NCBI GenBank assembly: GCA_964584165.1
Contig: CAZOYW010000006.1
Coordinates: forward strand, 36,022-100,021
Length of the DNA stretch: 64,000 bases
DNA from: an uncultured bacterium
Lineage (GTDB): Bacteria; Auribacterota; Erginobacteria; Erginobacterales; CAZKCI01
Direction of reading: 5' to 3'
The notes under the pieces were generated by a model that searched no databases, had not been told where the DNA came from, and saw only the letters and a list, made by a program, of their open reading frames with translations. Position numbers and translations under genes: made by a program. Of this stretch, positions 15,189 through 48,710 are shown in pieces (position 1 is the first letter of the stretch; every line of letters begins with the position of its first letter).

Positions 15189-15224
15189 CGGGGATAGGGG
15201 ATGGGGGCTAGAGGTTAGGTTTTT

Positions 15225-15248
15225 GGGTTCAGGGTTCAGGGTTCAGGG
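15225..15248. repeat. Tandem heptamer (GGGTTCA)x3 spanning the stop codon of the YfhO gene
   Basis: gggttcagggttcagggttcagggg read directly; it encodes the C-terminal ...LNPEP* on the - strand. Confidence 0.5.
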
Positions 15249-17517
15249 GCCGGCGGCGGAGGCCGCCGAGGGCGACGACGGCCAGGAAGAGAGCGACGGC
15301 GGAGGAGAAGACGGCGGGGGCAACGAACGCCCAGTGGCGGCCGTTGAAATAGAACAGCACGCGATGGCGCCCGGCGGGGACGGGCGTCCCCATCAGGACG
15401 TGGTAGACCCGGCGAAGAGGCGCTGGCTCGCCGTCCACCTCCGCCCGCCAGGGGAAGAACCAGAACTCGGAGAAGACGAGCCAGGCCGGGGCGGGAAGAT
15501 CGACCAGGGCTTCGATCCGGTCGCGGCGGCGAGCGCTCACCCGGATCGTCCCCTCCTCCGAGACGGCCGCCGGCCGCAGGGCCAGGGACTCGTCGGCGGC
15601 GTTGACATAGGCGATCCGCGCGATATCGGCTTCCCCCTCCCGCAAGCCGCGGAGAAAGTCCCCGTCTCGGACCACGGGCTCGGCGCGGAAACGGAGGAAG
15701 AGCTCCTCCTCCGCCCCCGGGTTGACCCGGAGATGGGCGTCGACCCGGCTCAGGCTCTCCAGCCCCTTCCGGCTGGTGTCCTCGGGGTCCCAGGAGGCGA
15801 AATAGGCGTCGAGGTCGATGAAGTATTTGACGTTGAGCAGTGACCACATCGGGTTCGACCAGTCGGCGAAGATGATCTCCTGGATCTCGCGAACCCGCCG
15901 CAGCTCCTCGTCGAGGAGGAAGTAGGGGAAGATCGGCCGGATTCCGTCGGAGAGGGCGTTGAGGTAGAAGTTGTGGGAGAAGAGGTCGGGGAGGTCCTTC
16001 ACGCCGAAGAAGGCGCGGTAATCCCGGCGGTCGGGCTGGCTGGCGAGCGCCTCCACCCGGGGCTGGGGACGGTAGATCTCGTCGTAGCGGTAGTAGGCGG
16101 TGGGGTCGCCCCGGTTCGCCTCCCCCAGGGTGGAGAAGAGGGCGGTTTTTTCCAGAAAAAAGAGGGGGAAGATCAGCCAGGCCGCGCGGAGGTCGAGGCG
16201 GGTGAAGGCGAGGGTGGCGAGGATCAACCAGGAGAAGGAGCAGGCGACGACGCCGCGGAGGGGTATCCCGCCCGCCCCGCGGAGGTGGAGGAGAAGCACG
16301 GCGGCGGGGAGCAGGACCGTCCCGCCGGCGATCCAGCGAAGGGAGCGCCGAAAGGAGAGGGAGTCGACGGCCAGGGCGACCAGGAAGGCGTAGAGGAAGT
16401 AGAGGAGCATCGCCATCCGGGCCGGGTGGCGGAGACCGAAGACCTTCATGAACCAGCCCTGCAGGGGAGCCAGGGGGGAGTGCTTCCCCAGGATCCAGAG
16501 GAAGCAGAGAAGGAGGGCGGAGAGCCAGAGGAGGCGGTCGGGGCGCCGGAAAAGGCGGAACAGCCCCACGGCCACCAGGGGGAGGAGGACGAGCGAGAAC
16601 TCCAGTGTGTTCTCCCAGGGATAGTCCGGGCGATCGGTGAAGCCGGTGGAGAGCTGGGTGAGGAAGAAGCGGGGGAGGGAGAGCGAATACTCCAGGATCG
16701 AGTCGAGCGGCTCGGCCCCCCTCCCCTGCTCGGGGAGCGAGTAGAGCGTGGGGATGGCTTGGACGGCGAAGACCATCCCGGCGAGAAGAAAGACCGCCAG
16801 GAGAAGCCGGAGGTTCCGCCACGAGAAGGGGCGCTGGCAGAGGGCCATCAGAGCCAGGAAAAGCCCGAAGAAGAAGGTCGGCTTGACGTCGCCGTTGGAG
16901 ACGAGGCCGATCCCGAGGAGGAGGGCGGAGAGGGCCGCCCAGCGGCGGCGGGCGGCGGAGCCGGGAGCGGCCAGGAGCGCGCGGCCAAAGGCCAGCAGAT
17001 AGAGCGGGGCGAAGAGGACGGCGGAGATCCGGTCGTAGCCGTGGCGGATCCCGAAGACATAGGTCTGATGGTTGTAGGCGTAGGCCAGCCCCCCGAGGAG
17101 GGATCCGGCCGGCCCGAGCCCCCGGGAGCGGAGGAAGAGGAACATGGCGAGGGCGCAGAGGACCTGGAGAACTGCCAGCACGGCGAGGAGGGCGGCCAGA
17201 AGGACGGGGCCGGTCAGGGCCGGGAAGAGGCGGTGGGCGGCGAGGAGCGCGAGGGTCACGGGGGAGAAGATCGGAGCCTGGGGAAAACGGGGAAGGTACT
17301 GGAGGTAGACGGGGTCCCAGAAGAGGGCAGCCCCCTCGTCCGCGGAGCGGAAGAGCGCTTCGACCTGGCAGAGCGTGTCCTTCAGCTCGTACCCCAGCAT
17401 CCCGGAGAAGCCGGGACTGAAGTAGGACTTCCCGTAGAAGGAGAGGAAGGCGAGGGCGGAGATCGCGAGGACGAGGGCGATCTGGCGGCCGGTGATCTTG
17501 GAGAATGCGGCATCCAT
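15229..17517 (-). CDS. YfhO-family GT-C membrane glycosyltransferase (762 aa)
   Basis: Polytopic; C-terminal FSEFWFFPWRAEVDGEPAPLRRVYHVLMGTPVPAGRHRVLFYF YfhO signature. Confidence 0.8.
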   Translation of the reverse strand: MDAAFSKITGRQIALVLAISALAFLSFYGKSYFSPGFSGMLGYELKDTLCQVEALFRSADEGAALFWDPVYLQYLPRFPQAPIFSPVTLALLAAHRLFPALTGPVLLAALLAVLAVLQVLCALAMFLFLRSRGLGPAGSLLGGLAYAYNHQTYVFGIRHGYDRISAVLFAPLYLLAFGRALLAAPGSAARRRWAALSALLLGIGLVSNGDVKPTFFFGLFLALMALCQRPFSWRNLRLLLAVFLLAGMVFAVQAIPTLYSLPEQGRGAEPLDSILEYSLSLPRFFLTQLSTGFTDRPDYPWENTLEFSLVLLPLVAVGLFRLFRRPDRLLWLSALLLCFLWILGKHSPLAPLQGWFMKVFGLRHPARMAMLLYFLYAFLVALAVDSLSFRRSLRWIAGGTVLLPAAVLLLHLRGAGGIPLRGVVACSFSWLILATLAFTRLDLRAAWLIFPLFFLEKTALFSTLGEANRGDPTAYYRYDEIYRPQPRVEALASQPDRRDYRAFFGVKDLPDLFSHNFYLNALSDGIRPIFPYFLLDEELRRVREIQEIIFADWSNPMWSLLNVKYFIDLDAYFASWDPEDTSRKGLESLSRVDAHLRVNPGAEEELFLRFRAEPVVRDGDFLRGLREGEADIARIAYVNAADESLALRPAAVSEEGTIRVSARRRDRIEALVDLPAPAWLVFSEFWFFPWRAEVDGEPAPLRRVYHVLMGTPVPAGRHRVLFYFNGRHWAFVAPAVFSSAVALFLAVVALGGLRRRPLNPEP

Positions 17518-18767: not shown

Positions 18768-18777
18768 CGGGGATTAA

Positions 18778-18830
18778 GTGATCAGTAATCAGTAATCAGT
18801 GATCAGTGATCAGTGATCAGTGATCAGTAA
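18778..18830. repeat. Perfect tandem heptamer array (GTGATCA/GTAATCA)x7 in the 123-bp gap upstream of the SPASM gene
   Basis: gtgatcagtaatcagtaatcagtgatcagtgatcagtgatcagtgatcagtaa; followed by gaacc-rich direct repeats (aactgcgaaccgcgaacccgtgaaccgttgaaccctg). Confidence 0.7.
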
Positions 18831-18890
18831 ACTGCGAACCGCGAACCCGTGAACCGTTGAACCCTGTATCCCGCATCCCGGTCCATCCTT

Positions 18891-19652
18891 TCATCCGAGA
18901 AGAAGATATTTCAGCCAGCTATACACGTATCGGCAAGACACCCGGCGGAGGCGGATCTTCGACTCCCCGAAGCGGCGGCTGAATTCGTGGGAGGGGATCT
19001 CGGCGATCCGGAAGCCCTTCCGCAGGGTCTTGATCGTCATCTCCTGCTCGATGGTGGTGATGTTCTCCTTGAGATCGAGGGCGCGAGCGCACTCCGCTGA
19101 GAGCGCCCGGAAGCCGTTCTGCGACTCGCTCAAGCGCACGCCGAAGCGGTAGTTGATCCCGAGCGTGATGATGTCGCTCCCGATCATCCGGAGAAACTTG
19201 TTCAAGTCGCCGTGAAGCTCGTCGGAGCCTCCCCGGGGGCGGGAGCCGACGACGTGGTCGGCCTCTCCCCGGAGGATGGGGAGGACCAGGCGGGGGATGT
19301 CGGCGGGACGGTGGGAGTAGTCGGCGTCGATAAAGACGATGACCTCGCCCGCGGCCTCCCGGATCGCGGTCCGCACGCCATCCCCCTTCCCCTTCCCCCC
19401 GTCCAGGACCACCCGGCAGCCCAAGCCGGAAGCGATCTCGCGGGTCCGGTCGGAGGAATGGCCGTCCACCACCAGGAGCTCGTCGGCGTAGGGGCGGGAG
19501 AAGCGGACGATCTCGCCGATCGACTTCTCCTCGTTCCGGGTCGGGATGACCACCGTGACCTTCTTCGTCCGGCGGCCGTACTCGGCGAGGATCTCCTCGT
19601 CGGAGCCGGCGGGGGCCCAGGGGTCGGCCGAATCGATCGGCGGGCGGTTCAT
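18891..19652 (-). CDS. GT2 polyprenyl-phosphate sugar synthase, DPM1/GtrB-like, soluble (253 aa)
   Basis: VTVVIPTRNEEKSIGEIV...VVDGHSSDRT...FIDADYSH; DPM1-type GT-A catalytic core. Confidence 0.85.
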   Translation of the reverse strand: MNRPPIDSADPWAPAGSDEEILAEYGRRTKKVTVVIPTRNEEKSIGEIVRFSRPYADELLVVDGHSSDRTREIASGLGCRVVLDGGKGKGDGVRTAIREAAGEVIVFIDADYSHRPADIPRLVLPILRGEADHVVGSRPRGGSDELHGDLNKFLRMIGSDIITLGINYRFGVRLSESQNGFRALSAECARALDLKENITTIEQEMTIKTLRKGFRIAEIPSHEFSRRFGESKIRLRRVSCRYVYSWLKYLLLG

Positions 19653-19886
19653 GCGGCCATTATGGGGGAGAGAAACCTTTCTGCCAAGACTTCTTCGGGC
19701 GCAAGAAACGGCTCGTTAGGTTATCGCGCCAAGACGCCAAGTCGCAAAGGGGGGATAGAGGATAGGGGATAGAGTTTAGAGATGGGGGGGCGGTGGCGTC
19801 GACCGAGAGAACGCGGTTTGCCTCCTCTGTAAGGCCTCAGTTACGAGGGGGAAATCCCATGGGAGCGGCGTCTAGCTTGCCCCGCA

Positions 19887-33001: not shown

Positions 33002-35230
33002 TTATAGCCCTTTTCGCGGATCGCCGCAGCTGCCGGGAGCGGCCGTGAAGTGGCGGGGGCTCATCACGGCGAAGATCTCCCGCACCTCTCCCCCCCGACC
33101 CGGAAAAGCGATCCATCCCCGCCGGTACTCCCGCCGGAAGACGTCGCGGACCCAGAGCGTGTCGCCGAACTGCATGGCCCAGGGGCGGCTGTCGTCCCCC
33201 GGGCGGTCGGGCCAATCATCGCGGGGGACCTCTTCGCGCCCCCCCTCGCCCGCGAGCTCGACGCGGGCGGCGGCCGCGGCGGACGGACTCCCGCAGACGA
33301 CATAGATATCGCTGCAGAGAAGAGGGTCGAATCGGAAGGAGACCGCCTCGGCGCTCCCCGGACCGAGACGGGCGGAGGTTTCGAGCGACCCGTCGAAGGG
33401 TTCGGCGGGCGAGCCGCCCGCCGGCGCCAGGGCCCCGGAAGCGCGCGGCATCTCCACGAAGAGGTGGCCGGCGAAACCGCGCTCCTCCTGGAACCGGCTC
33501 AGCTCGCGGTAGGCGACCCGGGCGGTCGAGCCGGACCAGTTGAGAAAGGTGAGGGGGAACTGGCGGCGGGCGGCCGCGAAGTTCCCTAGTTTGCGGAAGG
33601 TGATGGAGCGGCCGTGAGCGAGGCCGGACTCGTCCCAGAGGTCGAAGACGACGGTCCGCCAGCGGGAGCGGTAGAACCCCTCCCTCTCCCGCTCGGCGAT
33701 CCAGCGCTTCCCCGACTCGCCGACGGCCGCGATGACGAGCAGGCTGTAGACGGCGAAGGCGGCGGCCGCCGCCGCGGGCAGCCGGCCCGGCGGCGGAAAA
33801 CGGCGGAACCGACGGCCGGCGAGAGCGGCGGCCGCCAGGCAAGCGACGGACGCGGCGGCGACGGCCGCCGCCGCGGGGGCGCCGGCGAACTTCGGATGGA
33901 AGAGAAGATAGGCCCCATCCCGGGCCAGAAGGGGGAGGCGACGGAGAAGCTCGGCGGGGGGGATGAAGGCGCGGGGGGCTTCGTTGGCGAGTACCCGCTC
34001 GCCCCACTGAAAGAAGGGGGCGGAGCCCTTGAAAATCTCGCTGCACTCGCCGAGGTAGCGGGAGAGCGGACCGAGCAAGTTGACTCCCATCCCGGCGATG
34101 AAGACCCCCATCCCGATCGGCATGGGGAGGCGGGAGATGGCGAGCGAGAGGCCGAGAACGGAGAAGGGGAGAAGCAGCATCGGGAAGCGCCCCCCCGCCC
34201 AGCACTGGTTCTCCCAGCCCCGATAGAGGGCCATCTCGAGGAACGAGCCGAGGAGCATGAACCCTCCCCCCAGCGCCACGCCGGGGGATCTCCGGATGAG
34301 CAGGACGGAGAGAAGCACGCCGGTGATGAAAACCGGGCTTTCCAGGAGGCGGGGGGAGAGATGGCGCACGACCTGGAGGATCTCACCCCAGCTCTGGCCG
34401 GTGGACCCGAAGGTGTAGGTCAGGTTCCAGGCCCCGACGTAGTAATGCTGGTAGAGGATGGCGGGGGCGACGCCCAGGGCGAAGCCGGCGATCACCATGA
34501 GAAGGCGAAATGGGGCCCCCCGGCCCTTTTCCCGAAGGGCGAGAATGATCCAGGAAGCGGCCGGTATGCCCAGCGAAACGATCGCCTGGAGGCGAAAGAA
34601 CGCGGCGAGTCCGGAGAAGAGGCCGAGGGCGAACCAAACCCCCGCGCCGCGGGACCCGCCGCGGTCGACCGCCGCCGCCTCGCGGACGAGGAGCGCGAGC
34701 GCGAGCATCAGCGGCCCGTCGGCCCAGCTGTGGTGGACGACCAGGAGCAGGAAGAAGTAGGAGGAGGCGACCGCGAGGGCCGTCCCGGCGAGGGCGGGGA
34801 GTGCGCCGGCCAGGCGGCGGGCGGTCCGGAAGAGAACGGCCAGGGCGAGGAGGGCGGCGAGGAGTCCGGGAAGGTTGAAGGCCGCCCGGTACAGGGGGGT
34901 TCCGGGGCCGAAGGCGGGCGCCGGCAAGCCGAGCGCGCCGCCGGCGGAGAGGGCGAGACGGAAAAGGGCGTAGGCGGGGAGAGCGAGGAGGGAGCGCCCG
35001 ATGGTGTGGTGGAGAGAGAGGTAGCCGGCCGGCGTCATGTAGTTCCCGATCCAGTCGGAGAACTCGGGGACCTCCCAGACCCGAAAGCCGCTCCCGCCGT
35101 CGATCGACTCGGCGATCATCCGGTAGGTGATGTCGGCGTAGCCGACGAAGGGGTTGGACCAGAGGAAGACGGCGGCGGCGAGCGCCGCCCAGGCGAGACC
35201 GGAAGCCATATGTCGCCTGAAACCAATCAT
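33002..35230 (-). CDS. GT-C-like polytopic membrane protein, paralog family A (C-terminal ...REIFAVMSPRH)
   Basis: N-terminal TM helices plus a large C-terminal domain. It shares a C-terminal motif with the genes at 45386-47623 and 53439-55586. Start ATG 35230 with an AGGAAAGAG RBS. Confidence 0.65.
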   Translation of the reverse strand: MIGFRRHMASGLAWAALAAAVFLWSNPFVGYADITYRMIAESIDGGSGFRVWEVPEFSDWIGNYMTPAGYLSLHHTIGRSLLALPAYALFRLALSAGGALGLPAPAFGPGTPLYRAAFNLPGLLAALLALAVLFRTARRLAGALPALAGTALAVASSYFFLLLVVHHSWADGPLMLALALLVREAAAVDRGGSRGAGVWFALGLFSGLAAFFRLQAIVSLGIPAASWIILALREKGRGAPFRLLMVIAGFALGVAPAILYQHYYVGAWNLTYTFGSTGQSWGEILQVVRHLSPRLLESPVFITGVLLSVLLIRRSPGVALGGGFMLLGSFLEMALYRGWENQCWAGGRFPMLLLPFSVLGLSLAISRLPMPIGMGVFIAGMGVNLLGPLSRYLGECSEIFKGSAPFFQWGERVLANEAPRAFIPPAELLRRLPLLARDGAYLLFHPKFAGAPAAAAVAAASVACLAAAALAGRRFRRFPPPGRLPAAAAAAFAVYSLLVIAAVGESGKRWIAEREREGFYRSRWRTVVFDLWDESGLAHGRSITFRKLGNFAAARRQFPLTFLNWSGSTARVAYRELSRFQEERGFAGHLFVEMPRASGALAPAGGSPAEPFDGSLETSARLGPGSAEAVSFRFDPLLCSDIYVVCGSPSAAAAARVELAGEGGREEVPRDDWPDRPGDDSRPWAMQFGDTLWVRDVFRREYRRGWIAFPGRGGEVREIFAVMSPRHFTAAPGSCGDPRKGL

Positions 35231-43547: not shown

Positions 43548-45389
43548 CTATTTTCGCCCGTTTGGGAGCGCGGGGCTACGTTTTTCCGCCAGGTAGAGGT
43601 AGAAGGAGTTGGGGGGCCAGTAGATCGACTGGTGGAGGGCGCGGGGGGCGTTCCCCGGCGTCTCCCGGAGGGTCGTCAGCGTGTAGCCCGGGGGGATCGT
43701 CCGCTCGGGGTCGGGGTAGAAGCGCCGCATCGCCTCCCCTTCGTAACGGGATCCGCGCGAGATGTGCATGTCCACCCAGAGGAAGCGGTCGCCGGCGGGG
43801 AAATAACCCTCCCGGACGCCGTGGACTCGCCACTCCCGCCCCCCCCAGGAAAAAGAGAAAACGGGGAAGGAGGCGGCGAAGTCGGCGTCGAGCGAGTCGG
43901 AGGGACGGGGAAAGGACGGCCAGCGGACCTCGCCGAAGCGGGAGGAACGGGCCAGGGCCATCTCGAGGATCTGGAGGTTCTGCTCGCTCGCGACCAGGCC
44001 GTCGGGGCGGCAGCGCTCGAGCGCGGCGCCGATCGCGTCGAGATCGAGGCGGGAGACCCGGTCGCGGTAGAGGCCGGGGAGCGAGAGAGCGAAAGGGAGG
44101 GCGGGAAGGAGGCAGAGGAGGAAGACGAGGAGTCGGGCGGCGCCGGTCATCCCGGGCCGGCGACCGAGAATCCCTTCGACCAGCCAGCCGTAGAAGAGGG
44201 CGAAGAGGGGAGAGAGGAAGAAGAGCTGGCGGACGCCGCCGAAGGGGACGAGGAAGAGGAGGTTGGCGGCGAAGCAGGCGAGAAGAGTGGAGAGGAGGAG
44301 ACGGGGGACGGGAGAAGCAGTGATCGGTGACCAGCGATCAGTAATCAGTCGGTCTCTCCCCCGATCGATAGCTTGTCCCCCACTGATCACTGATAACTGA
44401 TCACTGACCACTCTCTTTCTCCTCGACCAAAGACCACCGAACCTGCACGCAATCCCCGCAGCCAGAACGAGGAGGAACGGGACGGAGACCCAGTTCCAAC
44501 GGAGGGGGAGATAGACCCTGGGATCGAAGACCAGAGCGAGCTGGTAGTTGAAAAGGTCGTAAAGGCGGACCAGGAGGTAGAGCGGGAGATGGGCCATTCC
44601 TCCCCCCCCTCCCCCGCGCAGGAAGAGGGGGTAGTAGGAGTCCATGTACCAGCGGAAGGACTCGCTCCAGGGGATGATCCGGAGGAGGAGGCGGAGGTGG
44701 ACGGCACAGAGGGCGCCGTAGAGGAGAGCGCCGGGGAGCAGGGCGGTGGGAGGCCGGCGGCGCGACATGGCGCCCAGGCCCTCATAAAGCCCGCAGAGGA
44801 AGATCCCCGCGGTGAGCCAGAGCTGAGTATACATGAAGAGGGCGGAGACAAAGGCGGCGAGCGCGAAGACGACCCAGCCCCGGTAGTCGCCCCGAGGACG
44901 GGCGACAAAGAAATAGGCCGCGAGCTGGAGGGAGGAGGCGAGAAGGGCCGCGGCGTAGACGTCGGCGAACTGGCCGAAGACGACCCCCGGGACGGAGAAG
45001 GCCGCGGAAAAAGCGGCGGCGAACGCCGCCGCGGGGCGGCCCGGGAAGAGCCGGCGCGCGATCGCGAAGACCGCCGCCGCCCCCACCGCCCCTCCCCCGG
45101 CGGCGATCAGCCTCACGGCGACCAGGCTCGTCCCGGTGAAAAGCTGGAGCGCCTCCACCAGGGCCGACCAGGCGACCGTCTGGCCCGAGGCGACGTAATC
45201 CCGGACGTTGGACCAGAACTCCCCCCCCAGGACGAGAAGCGATCCGGACCAGCGAAGAGCGGGGTTGGCGTGCCAGCCGCCCAGCCATTCGTCGAACTGC
45301 ATCTGGACCCGGGAGATGAGGATCAGCCTTAAGCCCAGGGCGAGCAGACCGACGGCCAGGGCCGCGGGCCAGACCGGTCTTTCCTTCAT
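43548..45389 (-). CDS. GT39/GT83-like GT-C membrane glycosyltransferase containing an in-frame repeat-encoded insert
   Basis: N-terminal LRLILISRVQMQFDEW (GT-C DE-type motif) and many TM helices; residues ...VVSDQLSVISGGQAIDRGRDRLITDRWSPIT are encoded by the heptamer arrays at 44318-44412. Confidence 0.6.
   Translation of the reverse strand: MKERPVWPAALAVGLLALGLRLILISRVQMQFDEWLGGWHANPALRWSGSLLVLGGEFWSNVRDYVASGQTVAWSALVEALQLFTGTSLVAVRLIAAGGGAVGAAAVFAIARRLFPGRPAAAFAAAFSAAFSVPGVVFGQFADVYAAALLASSLQLAAYFFVARPRGDYRGWVVFALAAFVSALFMYTQLWLTAGIFLCGLYEGLGAMSRRRPPTALLPGALLYGALCAVHLRLLLRIIPWSESFRWYMDSYYPLFLRGGGGGGMAHLPLYLLVRLYDLFNYQLALVFDPRVYLPLRWNWVSVPFLLVLAAGIACRFGGLWSRRKRVVSDQLSVISGGQAIDRGRDRLITDRWSPITASPVPRLLLSTLLACFAANLLFLVPFGGVRQLFFLSPLFALFYGWLVEGILGRRPGMTGAARLLVFLLCLLPALPFALSLPGLYRDRVSRLDLDAIGAALERCRPDGLVASEQNLQILEMALARSSRFGEVRWPSFPRPSDSLDADFAASFPVFSFSWGGREWRVHGVREGYFPAGDRFLWVDMHISRGSRYEGEAMRRFYPDPERTIPPGYTLTTLRETPGNAPRALHQSIYWPPNSFYLYLAEKRSPALPNGRK
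44318..44412. repeat. Inverted pair of degenerate heptamer arrays (CAGTGAT-like x5 ... CACTGAT-like x4) inside a coding region
   Basis: cagtgatcggtgaccagcgatcagtaatcagtcgg ...tctcccccgatcgatagcttgtcccc... cactgatcactgataactgatcactgaccact; related to the intergenic array at 18778-18830. Confidence 0.6.
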
Positions 45390-47623
45390 GGCTTCACCTC
45401 TTTCCCAAGCGCGGGCCGGCCATGGCGCGGGGACATGATCGCGAAGACCTCGCGCAGAGACGCTTCTTCCGGCCGCCGGAATCCGCTCAGGAGGATGTAG
45501 CGCCAGGGACGCTGGTAGAAATCCCAGATCCAGAGGGTATCACCCCGCGGATCCGCCCGGTAGGGCTTCTCCCAGAGCCGCCGGTCCGCCGACACCAGGA
45601 CCTCCAGGCGTCCCACCGCGTCGGGGCGATCGAAGGCGACCAGGACATCGCTGAAGGGTCCCGACCGGTCGCTGAGGGCGATCTCCAGCTCCGGCCCGGG
45701 AGACAGGAACCTCGCGGCGGGGGCGCAGGAGAGGAGGTTCCCGTCGGTGATCGCCCCCTCCTCCCGGAACTTGACGCCGCCGACGGCCCGGATCGCTCCC
45801 GGGACGCCGTAGGCGGCGCAGATCGCCTGCCAGGGATGACGGACCGCCGCCCGGCGGCGGTATTCCCCGATCAGGCGGAGGCCGAGGTCGACGACCGCTC
45901 CCTCCCGGATCGGCTTGATCGCCATGGAGAGGGCGAGGAGGCGCTCGGCTTCCTGCAGCATCCCCGCCTCCAGGTAGCTCAAGGAGCGGAGCTGGAGGTC
46001 GTCGACCGCGTTCGACCAGTCATAGCGGAGCGTCCGCCAGCGGTCGCGGTAGAACCCAGAGCGCTCCCATTCGCCGGTCATCAGGCGGGCGCCCGCGATC
46101 CCCCGGGCCGTGAGGAGAAGGGTCGCCGCGGTGGCGAGGAGCGCGGCGAGGGCGCCGGCGGTGACGAGCCGGCGGCCGGGGGAACGGGGGAGGGTCTTCA
46201 GCGCCACCCCGAGGAGGACCAGCGGAACGACGGCGGCCGCCGCCATCCAGGCGTGGGGGGAGCGGGGTCCGGAGAGCATCACCTTGAGGACCCGGGGGAG
46301 GAGCGGAAGGGCGAGAACGGCGGCGCGCAAGAGGCCAGCGGGGGTCTCGGAGGCCGGCAGGGCGCGCACCGCCGCGGAGAGATCCGGCGGGAAGAGGCCG
46401 GAGGAGGACCGGCGGAGAAGGCCGACGAAGCCGGCGTAGGCGCAGAGGCAGGCGGCCGAGACAACGAGGAGGCGCCCCCGCCGGGTCCGCCGCCCCGCCC
46501 CGAGCGCGGCCAGGCCGATCATGAAGATCGGGGCGAGGATCAGGCAGTAGCGGGAGCCGAGGTAGGCGTGGAACTCCAGGCCGGAGCGCCGGGAGAAGAT
46601 CAGGAGGAGCTCGGCGGGCACGATCAGGGCCGAGGAGAGAGCGAGGGGGCGGAACGGGCGGGGGGCGAGGATCATGCCGAGTATCCCCAGGAAAGGGACG
46701 AGGCTCAAGGAGATGAACTCGGGGTGCCGGGGAAGGAGACGGACCAGGCTGGCCAGCTTCTCCGCGGCCAGCCCCCCTCCGTAGGGGTCGGTCCAACAGC
46801 TCCCGAACCACTCCCGGAAGATCAAAGCCTGGGGGAGAAGGGCGAGGGCAAAACCCGCGCCGAAGAGCGCGAGGAGGAGAACGGCCGCCCGCCCGACCAC
46901 CTTTCCCTCCCTCCTCCATTTCAGCGCGTAGACCGCCGGAAGGGCGATCCAGACCGCCGCCTGGAGGCGGATGAAAACGAGCCAGCCGAGGAGAAGGCCG
47001 GCGAGGAAGGCGGCGGCGGGAGGAGGAGCGGGTTGCCCGTCCAGGTAAAGGCAGAGGCTGATCAGGAGAGCGACGAAGAGGAGGGCGACCAGCTCCGAGC
47101 CGCCCGGGGTGAGAAAGAGCATCATCCAGATCTCCGTCCCCCAGAAAACCGCCGCCACCGCCAGGGCGGCCGCGGCCGGAGGCGCCAGCCGGCGGCAGAT
47201 CCGGTACATCAGGAGGAGCGCAAGGAGCCCGCAGAAGACGGCGCTGGCGTTGTACCAGAGGAGGCGATAGCCACCGACCGGACCGTAGGCGTCCGAGATC
47301 TGCCAGCGTTCGGAATCGGCCGGCCAGAGCAGGGTCTGGAAGATCTCCCCCAGCCAGAAGAAGGGGTAGGCGACCAGGGCCGCCCCGCCCGTCTGCGGCA
47401 TGGCGAGGTGGCCGGTCACGGTGAGGTGGTACTCGGTCTCCGCGAGCTTGGGCTCGTGGTCGAGGAGGAAGATGTCAGCGTCCCGGAAGAGGCTGGTGGC
47501 CAGCATGCAGTAGGTGGAGTCGACGAAGACGGGGCGATCGCTCGTCCAGAGGTAGAGGCCGCCGAGGATCGCCGCCCCGGCGCCGAGGGCGCCGAGGAGT
47601 GAACGGAGGGGGAAGGGCTTCAC
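45386..47623 (-). CDS. GT-C-like polytopic membrane protein, paralog family A (C-terminal ...REVFAIMSPRHGRPALG)
   Basis: VFVDSTYCMLATSLFRDADIFLLDHEPKLAETEYHLTVTGHLAMP is parallel to the gene at 53439-55586. GTG start overlapping the upstream TGA (GTGA); the ORF's upstream 257 aa is junk overlapping the GT2 gene. Confidence 0.7.
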   Translation of the reverse strand: MKPFPLRSLLGALGAGAAILGGLYLWTSDRPVFVDSTYCMLATSLFRDADIFLLDHEPKLAETEYHLTVTGHLAMPQTGGAALVAYPFFWLGEIFQTLLWPADSERWQISDAYGPVGGYRLLWYNASAVFCGLLALLLMYRICRRLAPPAAAALAVAAVFWGTEIWMMLFLTPGGSELVALLFVALLISLCLYLDGQPAPPPAAAFLAGLLLGWLVFIRLQAAVWIALPAVYALKWRREGKVVGRAAVLLLALFGAGFALALLPQALIFREWFGSCWTDPYGGGLAAEKLASLVRLLPRHPEFISLSLVPFLGILGMILAPRPFRPLALSSALIVPAELLLIFSRRSGLEFHAYLGSRYCLILAPIFMIGLAALGAGRRTRRGRLLVVSAACLCAYAGFVGLLRRSSSGLFPPDLSAAVRALPASETPAGLLRAAVLALPLLPRVLKVMLSGPRSPHAWMAAAAVVPLVLLGVALKTLPRSPGRRLVTAGALAALLATAATLLLTARGIAGARLMTGEWERSGFYRDRWRTLRYDWSNAVDDLQLRSLSYLEAGMLQEAERLLALSMAIKPIREGAVVDLGLRLIGEYRRRAAVRHPWQAICAAYGVPGAIRAVGGVKFREEGAITDGNLLSCAPAARFLSPGPELEIALSDRSGPFSDVLVAFDRPDAVGRLEVLVSADRRLWEKPYRADPRGDTLWIWDFYQRPWRYILLSGFRRPEEASLREVFAIMSPRHGRPALGKEVKP

Positions 47624-48480
47624 GGCGCCGCTTCCCTCCCGGCCGCGCGCCGGCCTCTGACGCGGGGATAGCTGGAGGCCTGGACCCGCCCGAGCAGCCG
47701 GGCTTGAAACCAGGCGGAGAGGATGACCCGGAGCATCCCGAAGCCGGCGCGGACAACCGCGGACGCTGAGCGGTGCATCGATGCCCCCGCCTCCCGGTGA
47801 CGGTAGCGGACCGGGACTTCCCGGAGGGGGTAGCCGCCGGCGAGCGTCCGGATGATCAGCTCGATGTCGAAGGAGAAGCGGTCGTCGTCGAACCAGGTCC
47901 GGAGGAGGTGGCGGCGGTCCCAGGCGTGGAACCCCGCGGTGACGTCGGTGACCCGGGTCCCGGTCAGGGCGGAGACCAGGAGGGAGAGGAAGGAGTTGCC
48001 CAGGTCGCGCAGACGGTCCCTCGCCTCCGGGGACCAATCCCCGCCCCGGAAGCGCGAGGCGTGGGCGAGAACGCACTCCCCCCGCGCCACGGGGTAGAGG
48101 AGGGAGGGGAGGTCCTCGGGGGCGAACTGGAGATCGGCGTCGATCGTCCCCTGGAGGTCGCGCGCGGCGGCGAGGATCCCCACCTTGCTCGCGTGCCCCT
48201 TGCCGTAATCCGGGCGGTTGCGGATCGTCCGGACCAGGCGGTCGGACCGGCCGATCGCCTCGGCGATCTCGGCCGTGCGGTCGTTTCCGCCGTGGACGAC
48301 CAGGATCTCGGCCCGGGGCAGGACGCCCCGGAGGCGCGAGATCAGCTCGGCGATCGTCCCCGCCTCGTTGAAGCAGGCGACGATCACGCTGCACTCGACC
48401 GTCCGGGCGAAGTCCCGCAGGGCGGCGGGGACCTCGGGAACGGCGGAGGAGAACGGCGGATCGCCGGTCGGGCCACTCAT
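47620..48480 (-). CDS. GT2 polyprenyl-phosphate sugar synthase, DPM1-like (286 aa)
   Basis: CSVIVACFNEAGTIAELI...VVHGGNDRTAEIA...TIDADLQF; start ATG 48480 with a GGGGAGG RBS. Confidence 0.8.
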   Translation of the reverse strand: MSGPTGDPPFSSAVPEVPAALRDFARTVECSVIVACFNEAGTIAELISRLRGVLPRAEILVVHGGNDRTAEIAEAIGRSDRLVRTIRNRPDYGKGHASKVGILAAARDLQGTIDADLQFAPEDLPSLLYPVARGECVLAHASRFRGGDWSPEARDRLRDLGNSFLSLLVSALTGTRVTDVTAGFHAWDRRHLLRTWFDDDRFSFDIELIIRTLAGGYPLREVPVRYRHREAGASMHRSASAVVRAGFGMLRVILSAWFQARLLGRVQASSYPRVRGRRAAGREAAP

Positions 48481-48598
48481 GGCGTGGACGCCTCCCCGAT
48501 ATTGGGTTCTCTTCCGTTTCGCGTGGGTTATTTCACGGGGAACGGCAGCCTGCCCTGAGTTTGTCGAAGGGTTTCGCCGCGACCCGGCCCCCGCCGGG

Positions 48599-48710
48599 CC
48601 TGTGGGAGCGACATTCCTGTCGCGATCCGAGCCAGCCGAGCCTGTGGGAGCGCCGTCCCCGGCGCGATCCGAGTTGGCCCGGATCGGGGCAAGAATGCCC
48701 CTCCCACACA
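48599..48710. repeat. REP-like palindromic element, second locus (one and a half units)
   Basis: cctgtgggagcgacattcctgtcgcgatcc... cctgtgggagcgccgtccccggcgcgatccgagttggcccggatcggggcaagaatgcccctcccaca; about 85% identical to 17613-17682. Confidence 0.6.

Follow-up and report, generated by a model that had tools for sequence, protein, structure and literature searches.

Inverted heptamer arrays translated in frame within a predicted GT-C-fold membrane protein of an uncultured bacterium

The stretch of DNA analysed here, termed the window, comprises 64,000 nt of contig CAZOYW010000006.1 from an uncultured bacterium. On its minus strand an uninterrupted open reading frame (ORF, 43548–45389) codes for a polytopic membrane protein of 613 aa, which has an alpha/beta domain at its C-terminus and a predicted fold resembling that of GT-C glycosyltransferases; its translation includes VVSDQLSVISGGQAIDRGRDRLITDRWSPITAS. 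This ORF carries the element under study, two inverted degenerate arrays of a 7-nt unit at positions 44318–44412 (95 bases). The unit is GTGATCA, which is TCACTGA on the other strand, and the element reads cagtgatcggtgaccagcgatcagtaatcagtcgg, followed by a 26-nt spacer and cccactgatcactgataactgatcactgaccact. The original prediction had described this inverted pair and had seen in it a candidate slipped-strand switch or, alternatively, an insertion resembling a miniature inverted-repeat transposable element (MITE). The pair as such was confirmed by the sequence itself and by a repeat search, and one of its arms also by the tandem repeat program TRF.

On the coding strand the 5' arm (44379–44412) consists of the units GTGGTCA GTGATCA GTTATCA GTGATCA GTG..., is translated VVSDQLSVIS and has the 'reverse' orientation of TCACTGA. 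The spacer, which forms the hairpin loop (44353–44378), is translated GGQAIDRGRD and exists as a single copy in the window. The 3' arm (44319–44352), in the 'forward' orientation of TCACTGA, consists of CTGATTA CTGATCG CTGGTCA CCGATCA CTG and is translated LITDRWSPIT. TRF reports CACTGAT with 4.6 copies and 88% matches at 44381–44412 but makes no call for the more degenerate partner array at 44319–44352. The repeat search finds the two 34-nt arms 26 nt apart and 79% complementary to each other. Because TGATCA is palindromic, the unit is self-complementary at 6 of 7 positions, and the appearance of an inverted pair is therefore partly intrinsic to the unit. The third unit of the 5' arm has TTA at the place of the consensus in-frame TGA, and the 3' arm has TGG there; these are exactly the changes that remove in-frame TGAs in the window.

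A 12-mer of the unit, with up to two mismatches allowed, has 24 matches in the window where 1.9 are expected (0 of 100 shuffles), and all but two of them are confined to 18779–18832 or 44321–44410. The RNA fold of the element has an energy of -49.5 kcal/mol, as compared with -29.7 ± 3.4 kcal/mol for dinucleotide shuffles (z = -5.9). Rfam gave no match over the whole window at the gathering threshold; in E-value mode over the element only a chance match to a plant miRNA precursor appeared (E = 0.26). The composition of the element is foreign to the gene: its GC content is 0.53, and GC at third codon positions (GC3) is 0.45 in the insert compared with 0.87 in the rest of the gene, which ties the lowest 33-codon segment of the gene. 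Therefore, the sequence is held by the repeat process and not by codon usage.

No Pfam match was obtained for the host gene or for either of its neighbours, the family profile did not match any PDB chain sequence, and a tblastn search of the protein against the window did not reveal a paralog. An AlphaFold model built with 14 homologs (pLDDT 73.6, pTM 0.77) has about 12 membrane helices and the C-terminal alpha/beta domain. When this model was compared with the PDB by Foldseek, nearly all of the top approximately 20 matches were GT-C enzymes (Pmt4, ALG9, AglB/PglB/STT3, ArnT, AftB), Pmt4 with E = 2.8e-4, at modest TM-scores of 0.3–0.47. One remote homolog, P0016, matches PMT_2 at E = 8e-4, below the curated cut-off. 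Thus, the GT-C label of the original prediction stands as far as the fold of the predicted model is concerned, whereas support at the sequence level is lacking; a GT-C fold is supported but membership in a curated family is not, since the similarity lies in the fold of the model. According to the alignment, a (Q/K)FD(E/D)W motif follows the first transmembrane helix in the first extracytoplasmic loop and is kept in all family members that have an N-terminus. In the window it reads QFDEW, and its acidic residues D33-E34 may have a catalytic role.

As had been claimed, the in-frame translation product of the arrays lies between transmembrane helices, in agreement with both the ORF translation and the model. 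The insert (residues approximately 326–358) has a pLDDT of 36–45 and lies between helices 300–336 and 360–377; it is predicted to form an unstructured loop between two transmembrane helices. This loop probably faces the cytoplasm, because it is preceded by an RRKR cluster (positive-inside rule).

The family of this protein is small. A word-indexed search yielded 14 proteins, and 12 representatives among 1.84 billion fell below 1e-30; scans of genomes and metagenomes added the loci L009–L015 and L025–L033, two of which are labelled 'PVC group bacterium'. From each ortholog the loop DNA delimited by the invariant anchors NWVxxPF and FGGxRQ was taken. In eleven of these loci this loop contains heptamer arrays. 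Arrays on both sides are GTAATCA ×4 and CACGGAT ×6.3 in L008, AACCGTC ×4.7 and CGGTTCA ×4.7 in L009, CAGTCAG ×4.6 and CTTACTG-like units in L011, GGTAATC ×4.6 and CACCGAT ×3.7 in L014, CAGTGAG-like and GCTCACT-like units in L015, and GTAAGCR and YGCTTAC in L031 and L032. The loop of L017 has CAGTTAT ×3.6 with a decayed partner, that of L020 CGGTTCA ×7 only, and those of L013 and L016 have three to four direct blocks. A short loop free of repeats is found in L028–L030, L033, P0007 and the outgroups P0016 and P0017, and a longer one that lacks clear arrays in L010, L018 and L027.

Three of these loci deserve a remark of their own. The direct blocks of the two distant orthologs in L016 (1270–1600) and L013 (8560–8700) consist of 3–4 heptamers each with short spacers in between and do not form a hairpin. 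In L016 a higher-order repeat encodes SNQLSVISNQSLEA twice over and is followed by another heptamer, (GCAACCA)×4. Both loops are multi-level repeat expansions inside an ORF. In L020 (1–420) the ortholog P0008 starts at the equivalent of family residue approximately 227, 147 nt from the start of the contig, and only the 3'-arm array (CGGTTCA)×7 is kept; it may be a truncated or rearranged copy.

In a neighbour-joining tree the array-bearing members are found in both major clades of the family. Across these clades the boundaries are shared: the arrays run from directly behind the basic cluster R-K-K-R to 3–4 residues ahead of the (V/I)P of the following helix. Furthermore, the second detected 5'-arm unit is the in-frame one in 9 of the 11 sequences tabulated, and hence the start phase of the array is conserved. 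In about 22 kb TRF finds no period-7 arrays beyond those of the loop in L008 and L014, one further weak array in L011 and two further arrays in L009. L010 presents the converse: its flanks contain about 20 arrays, its loop not a single one. Random independent insertion does not explain this pattern, because site, boundaries and phase are the same in both clades and the flanks are nearly free of arrays. The pattern is explained most economically by a single ancient origin with subsequent losses.

The effect of the reading frame became visible when the 5'-arm units of the form GT-N-A were split according to whether TNA falls as a codon. Where it does, all 19 units have a pyrimidine as N (15 times T, 4 times C), giving TTA or TCA instead of TAA or TGA; where TNA is out of frame, 39 of 46 units have A or G at this position (85%; Fisher p = 5e-11). 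Arrays whose units are free of stops in any phase are mostly perfect, with 100% matches in the right array of L008, the left arrays of L009 and L011 and the right array of L014, the exceptions being the right arms of L009 (92%) and L011 (70%). Arrays of stop-containing units reach only 69–88% matches.

Variation among close strains was investigated next to this interspecific pattern. Eleven contigs carry the exact 613-aa protein, and five loci, taken from different assemblies (L001–L005), were read back; they are 99.4–100% identical to the window and their element is identical. The continuity of the ORF in independent assemblies, which the original prediction had asked to be checked, is thereby confirmed. 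Allele length was defined as the number of nucleotides between the fixed flank anchors GGTCTTTGGTCGAGGAG and CTTCTCCCGTCCCCCGTCTCC. The window allele measures 101 nt (L001–L005 and L034), and two further alleles came from the 90% identity cluster and one close homolog: a long one of 164 nt (L006, L007) and a short one of 59 nt (L021–L024, from four Logan runs). The flanks of the 59-nt and 164-nt strains are 99.3–99.8% identical to each other and each is approximately 97.2% identical to the window. The three lengths differ by 63, 42 and 105 nt, that is by 3, 2 and 5 times 21, and 21 is the least common multiple of 7 and 3. In the short allele the spacer and most of both arms are deleted and the ORF is intact. 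An origin of this allele by collapse of the de Bruijn graph is unlikely; exact complementarity between the arms extends over approximately 13 nt at most, and four runs show the same junction.

None of approximately 20 contigs shows an out-of-frame allele, nor does any array-bearing ortholog examined (12 tabulated). Two C-terminal fragments that start inside the element, P0129 and P0130, were considered as OFF alleles and rejected, as both turned out to lie next to the end of a contig, which is situated 46–82 nt upstream of the called start. In the strain with the long allele, a 1-nt indel in the gene's 3' portion truncates the C-terminal domain (P0002, 591 aa; approximately 1980–2050 in L006, alignment position approximately 1606 in L007); this indel is present in two records that may derive from one low-coverage sample (2.2×). 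It could be an assembly error or the mark of a pseudogene; if the latter, the long array sits under relaxed constraint.

These alleles bear directly on the possibility of a true contingency locus, in which slippage by a single unit would reversibly switch the glycosyltransferase OFF and ON within populations. The unit of 7 nt lies inside an ORF and is not a multiple of 3, and the claim that a frameshift would follow from the gain or loss of one unit holds: out-of-frame TGAs are retained in the arrays and would stop translation immediately after such a shift. Close strains differ in the length of the tract, the gene belongs to a cluster of glycan type (GT2, RGP, radical-SAM, methyltransferase), some orthologs possess perfect tracts of 4.6–6.3 units, and neuO provides a precedent for a heptamer switch. 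However, contingency genes need an uninterrupted tract of identical units with a length that permits frequent slippage, and the tracts of the window element are interrupted, with at most two perfect units running. The tract is located in the middle of the gene and not near its 5' end, strains that are 99.4–100% identical share the same allele, and the three alleles differ by multiples of 21 nt. Among the approximately 20 contigs and the array-bearing species examined no OFF allele was seen beside the ON alleles, as opposed to the 65.6% of genomes in which neuO is OFF. What remains of the predicted slipped-strand switch is that the number of units changes between strains; the ON/OFF part is not supported, given that only multiples of 21 nt are seen, and neither is the description as a classic phase-variable architecture, in view of the interrupted tracts, the inverted pair in mid-gene and the lack of out-of-frame alleles. 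It had also been stated beforehand that orthologs carrying the same insert would speak for a conserved loop and not a switch, and this is largely what was observed, with heptamer arrays at the same boundaries at 36–61% identity. For this genome we found no sign of an ON/OFF switch, and regard a contingency locus as very improbable.

The second idea of the original prediction, a MITE that stayed in frame, can be widened to a mobile hairpin element (MITE- or REPIN-like) inserted recently or recurrently, the shared loop being then the sole tolerant place in the gene. Such an element would account for the order of arm, spacer and arm over approximately 95 nt with a long hairpin, for the composition foreign to the gene, for a unit that is common to intergenic arrays of the same genome, for a spacer that is wholly different between 97%-identical strains and for the patchy distribution among orthologs. 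Yet the spacer has no second copy within the 64 kb, and at the ends of the element neither terminal repeats apart from the arrays nor a target-site duplication can be recognised. The site is occupied in every close relative (97–100% identity) without an empty one among them, both clades are occupied with the same boundaries and start phase, and loop arrays are present where a flank of approximately 22 kb has none, with L010 as the converse. The MITE proposal is therefore not supported, and we consider a mobile element of this kind improbable, although somewhat less so than a contingency switch.

Folding was compared with shuffled controls for 13 array-bearing loops. Eight of these fold well below the controls, with z from -3.1 to -8.2 (window -5.9, L006 -8.2, L009 -4.8, L014 -4.1, L011 -3.1, L015 -3.2, L031 -5.4, L032 -6.0). 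L008 (+0.6), L017 (-0.6), L016 (+1.2) and L020 (+1.3) do not, and L013 has direct arrays only. The sequence of the unit varies between species while both arms co-vary. For the covariation alignment, 21-nt arm segments from nine loci were registered by hand: 86% of the cells are paired as compared with 14–46% in slid registers, and 26 cells are changed on both sides, where shuffles give 9.1 ± 2.4 and none of 500 reaches 26, numbers to be read with the reservation that the register was chosen to maximise pairing, that the three units per arm are not independent and that the sequences are related. Unit positions 5 and 7 covary with their partners, and position 3, the site of stop avoidance, is mostly unpaired. 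The arms clearly track each other; selection for pairing may be the cause, as may correction of one arm on the template of the other.

Selection for pairing is the basis of a third explanation, that of a selected cis-acting element, an intragenic hairpin kept for its action on mRNA or DNA. It might bind the same putative heptamer-recognising factor as the arrays upstream of start codons, cause a translational pause, serve as a site for processing between the membrane domain at the N-terminus and the C-terminal part, or tune the loop length of the enzyme. The occupation of the same loop in both major clades with flanks devoid of arrays, the compensatory changes of the arms across species, the low folding energies of 8 among 13 array-bearing loops and the purine consensus retained in out-of-frame units all agree with it. 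So does the TCACTGA-type unit 9 nt upstream of a start codon in the array at 18777, a position for which translational regulation has been proposed (PMC4679880), as well as earlier work, cited in the neuO paper (PMC13001214), that ties a longer repeat region to more NeuO activity. Against a cis-acting element speak the five array-bearing loops without a hairpin, the complete loss of the arrays in several orthologs, the natural 59-nt allele which drops the spacer and most of both arms and leaves the gene intact, and the missing Rfam match; templated repair between the arms could yield covariation without selection. Internal translation initiation from the 3' 'forward' arm was rejected, as no ATG, GTG or TTG follows in frame downstream of it. 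We regard a selected cis-acting element as rather unlikely, although it deserves more credit than the mobile element.

On balance, we lean towards the reading that the locus is an ancient, self-renewing heptamer repeat of the type TNACTGA (similar to TAACTGA and the short tandemly repeated repetitive, STRR, sequences) in a permissive loop of a GT-C-fold protein, filtered for frame and stops. In such a scenario the arrays would turn over rapidly by replication slippage and by deletion and duplication promoted by the hairpin and by microhomology of the TGATCA core. This turnover would regenerate regular arrays and homogenise both units and arms. Purifying selection on the enzyme would remove all changes that are not multiples of three units as well as in-frame stops. 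Surviving alleles would be quantised at 21 nt (7 codons) because the non-multiples of three units are purged, and the outcome would be a loop of variable length.

Several observations weigh against this ancient, frame-filtered repeat, in addition to the reservations on the covariation register given above. Between the window and the 97%-identical long-allele strain the spacer defies alignment, and BLAST alignments break exactly there; replacement by recombination or re-insertion would fit better than slippage. The alleles were read from consensus assemblies, in which minor out-of-frame subpopulations are undetectable. The units that are out of frame keep the stop-containing purine consensus and the unit is also shared with intergenic arrays, which together suggest a force on the sequence of the unit itself, for example a binding factor, gene conversion or mobility. 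It would, moreover, be unusual for a neutral microsatellite to persist down to 36% protein identity, and this may point to selection on the array or the hairpin. Finally, the architecture is not uniform, since five array-bearing loops (L008, L013, L016, L017, L020) lack a hairpin.

The element is not the only heptamer repeat in the window. About seven clear period-7 arrays are found at four places within the 64 kb. On the minus strand, a GT2 gene (stop at 18891) is separated from a radical-SAM/SPASM gene by a spacer that contains, at 18777–18863, (AGTGATC)×7.4 followed by (GAACCGY)×3.7. The former array (18777–18828) has the TCACTGA-type unit in 'forward' orientation and ends 9 nt upstream of the ATG (18767) of the radical-SAM/SPASM gene. 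The original prediction had named an array near 18778–18830 as related and perfect; the relationship of the unit holds, but with 95% matches and two units reading AGTAATC the array is not perfect. A second group at 15190–15248, also on the minus strand, consists of GGGGATA ×4.3 and GGGTTCA ×3.4 and abuts the ATG (15188) of a gene for a B12-binding radical-SAM protein. Here the array at 15225–15248 overlaps an upstream YfhO-like gene and supplies its stop codon; the 762-aa protein encoded at 15229–17517 touches YfhO. The minus-strand intergenic spacers 15189–15248, 18768–18863 and 19753–19774 are filled by (GGGGATA)n, (GGGTTCA)n, (AGTGATC)n, (GAACCGY)n and (GGATAGA)n. Two of the intergenic arrays end 1–9 nt before a start codon, in the context ...ATCCCCG-ATG and without a sequence resembling a Shine-Dalgarno element. 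In L010 (1–6000 and 16400–18050) the approximately 20 period-7 arrays (CGGATTA/ACGGATT, AGGCTGA, AGCATAG, TTTCGGA and others) lie in nearly every intergenic spacer, several of them just upstream of start codons.

One might connect these intergenic arrays with the element by assuming one putative factor that acts on TNACTGA-type arrays both in 5' leaders and in the GT-C coding sequence. The hairpin would mask or expose the 'forward' arm, and the length quantised in 21-nt steps would tune expression or activity as a graded, heritable rheostat instead of an ON/OFF device. We consider this unlikely.

The neighbourhood of the host gene encodes GT2, RGP, radical-SAM and methyltransferase proteins together with several large membrane proteins without Pfam matches. 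More precisely, window positions 33548–55389 (identical to L001) form a long co-directional cluster around it, in which at least six membrane proteins of 600–800 aa without a Pfam match are interleaved with genes for GT2, RGP (PF03214), radical-SAM and class I methyltransferase proteins. This cluster may be a large uncharacterised glycan-assembly locus. Just upstream of the 745-aa gene which precedes the host gene, and placed inside a longer ORF (45386–48394, minus strand), there is a 42-nt tandem duplication at 48593–48673 (1.9 copies, 84% matches, TRF score 120).

Arrays of the TAACTGA/STRR type are widespread. The locus described here amounts to a natural experiment, an array under the constraint of a reading frame at one orthologous site across a protein family, with three natural alleles in one species-level group. 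What the repeat process conserves is the 7-nt period, the purine at unit position 3 and the complementarity of the arms; what translation forces are the 21-nt steps and the T or C at in-frame positions. As both effects are separable at this locus, the question of what maintains such arrays becomes directly testable. The case also calls for caution, since a non-triplet repeat in a glycan gene is by itself no evidence of phase variation.

Repeats of TAACTGA have been described in Beggiatoaceae, Cyanobacteria and Bacteroidetes as direct repeats that are mostly intergenic and closely precede start codons (MacGregor 2015, PMC4679880), and translational regulation was proposed for these upstream arrays. 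'Forward' arrays have stops in all frames, whereas 'reverse' arrays translate as LSVISYQ and can be translated within ORFs; the variant TCACTGA is listed in Table 3 of that work with the translations SLITDH- and SVISDQ- (PMC4679880). The arrays of the window resemble this type in the 7-nt unit, in the short tandem runs (here 4–7 direct units of TCACTGA, one base off TAACTGA) and in peptides which match SLITDH- and SVISDQ-. An intergenic position just upstream of a start codon in 'forward' orientation is found for the arrays at 18777–18863 and 15190–15248 and in the flanks of L010, and the position upstream of starts or over an upstream stop is as in BOGUAY; the element at 44318–44412 is the intragenic exception. 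The host differs as well, being an uncultured bacterium of 69% GC, with relatives of the gene labelled PVC group, outside the phyla reported. The intragenic cases known from that study are situated at protein termini or in small hypothetical ORFs (PMC4679880), whereas here an inverted pair sits midway in a conserved enzyme, at the same site in orthologs across the family, with its 'forward' arm kept open by point changes at the in-frame stops.

With the phase-variable genes there is less in common. In neuO, which codes for the capsule O-acetyltransferase of E. coli K1, the coding region begins with 3–53 units of 5'-AAGACTC-3'; the protein is full length only at unit numbers divisible by 3, 65.6% of 64 genomes have the gene in the OFF state, one-unit shift variants are present in cultures, and earlier work is cited as indicating that a longer repeat region raises the catalytic activity of NeuO (PMC13001214). 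Both loci have a heptamer repeat within the ORF of a surface-glycan-modifying enzyme, a putative one in the present case. However, the tract of neuO is single, long, regular and located at the 5' end, whereas the arrays here are short, interrupted, inverted and in mid-gene, and only in-frame alleles were seen. Heptamer tracts of Haemophilus with the potential for phase variation mostly have 13–38 units, and the locus at 44318–44412 does not share the hallmarks of these or of neuO.

Cyanobacterial STRR heptamers reportedly go back to Mazel et al. in 1990, and arrays of them are said to occur in the RNase P RNA gene of heterocystous cyanobacteria (Vioque, 1997). There, heptamer arrays likewise form an extended hairpin at a permissive site of a conserved gene and vary between strains while function is kept; the host is a structured RNA, however, and therefore free of any constraint by reading frame or stop codons. 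Rickettsia palindromic elements (RPE) are in-frame insertions in protein-coding genes, and both RPE and REPIN are dispersed multi-copy elements with a conserved full-length sequence. The likeness to these and to MITEs consists in a palindromic element of approximately 100 nt that on translation adds a surface or loop segment to a still functional protein; unlike RPE and REPIN, the element described here shares only the 7-nt unit with other loci, possesses a unique spacer and changes by whole repeat units. Heptamer arrays of this kind have already been described (PMC4679880), and it is the inverted pair in the middle of an enzyme, at one orthologous site, that distinguishes the present locus from the cases reported there.

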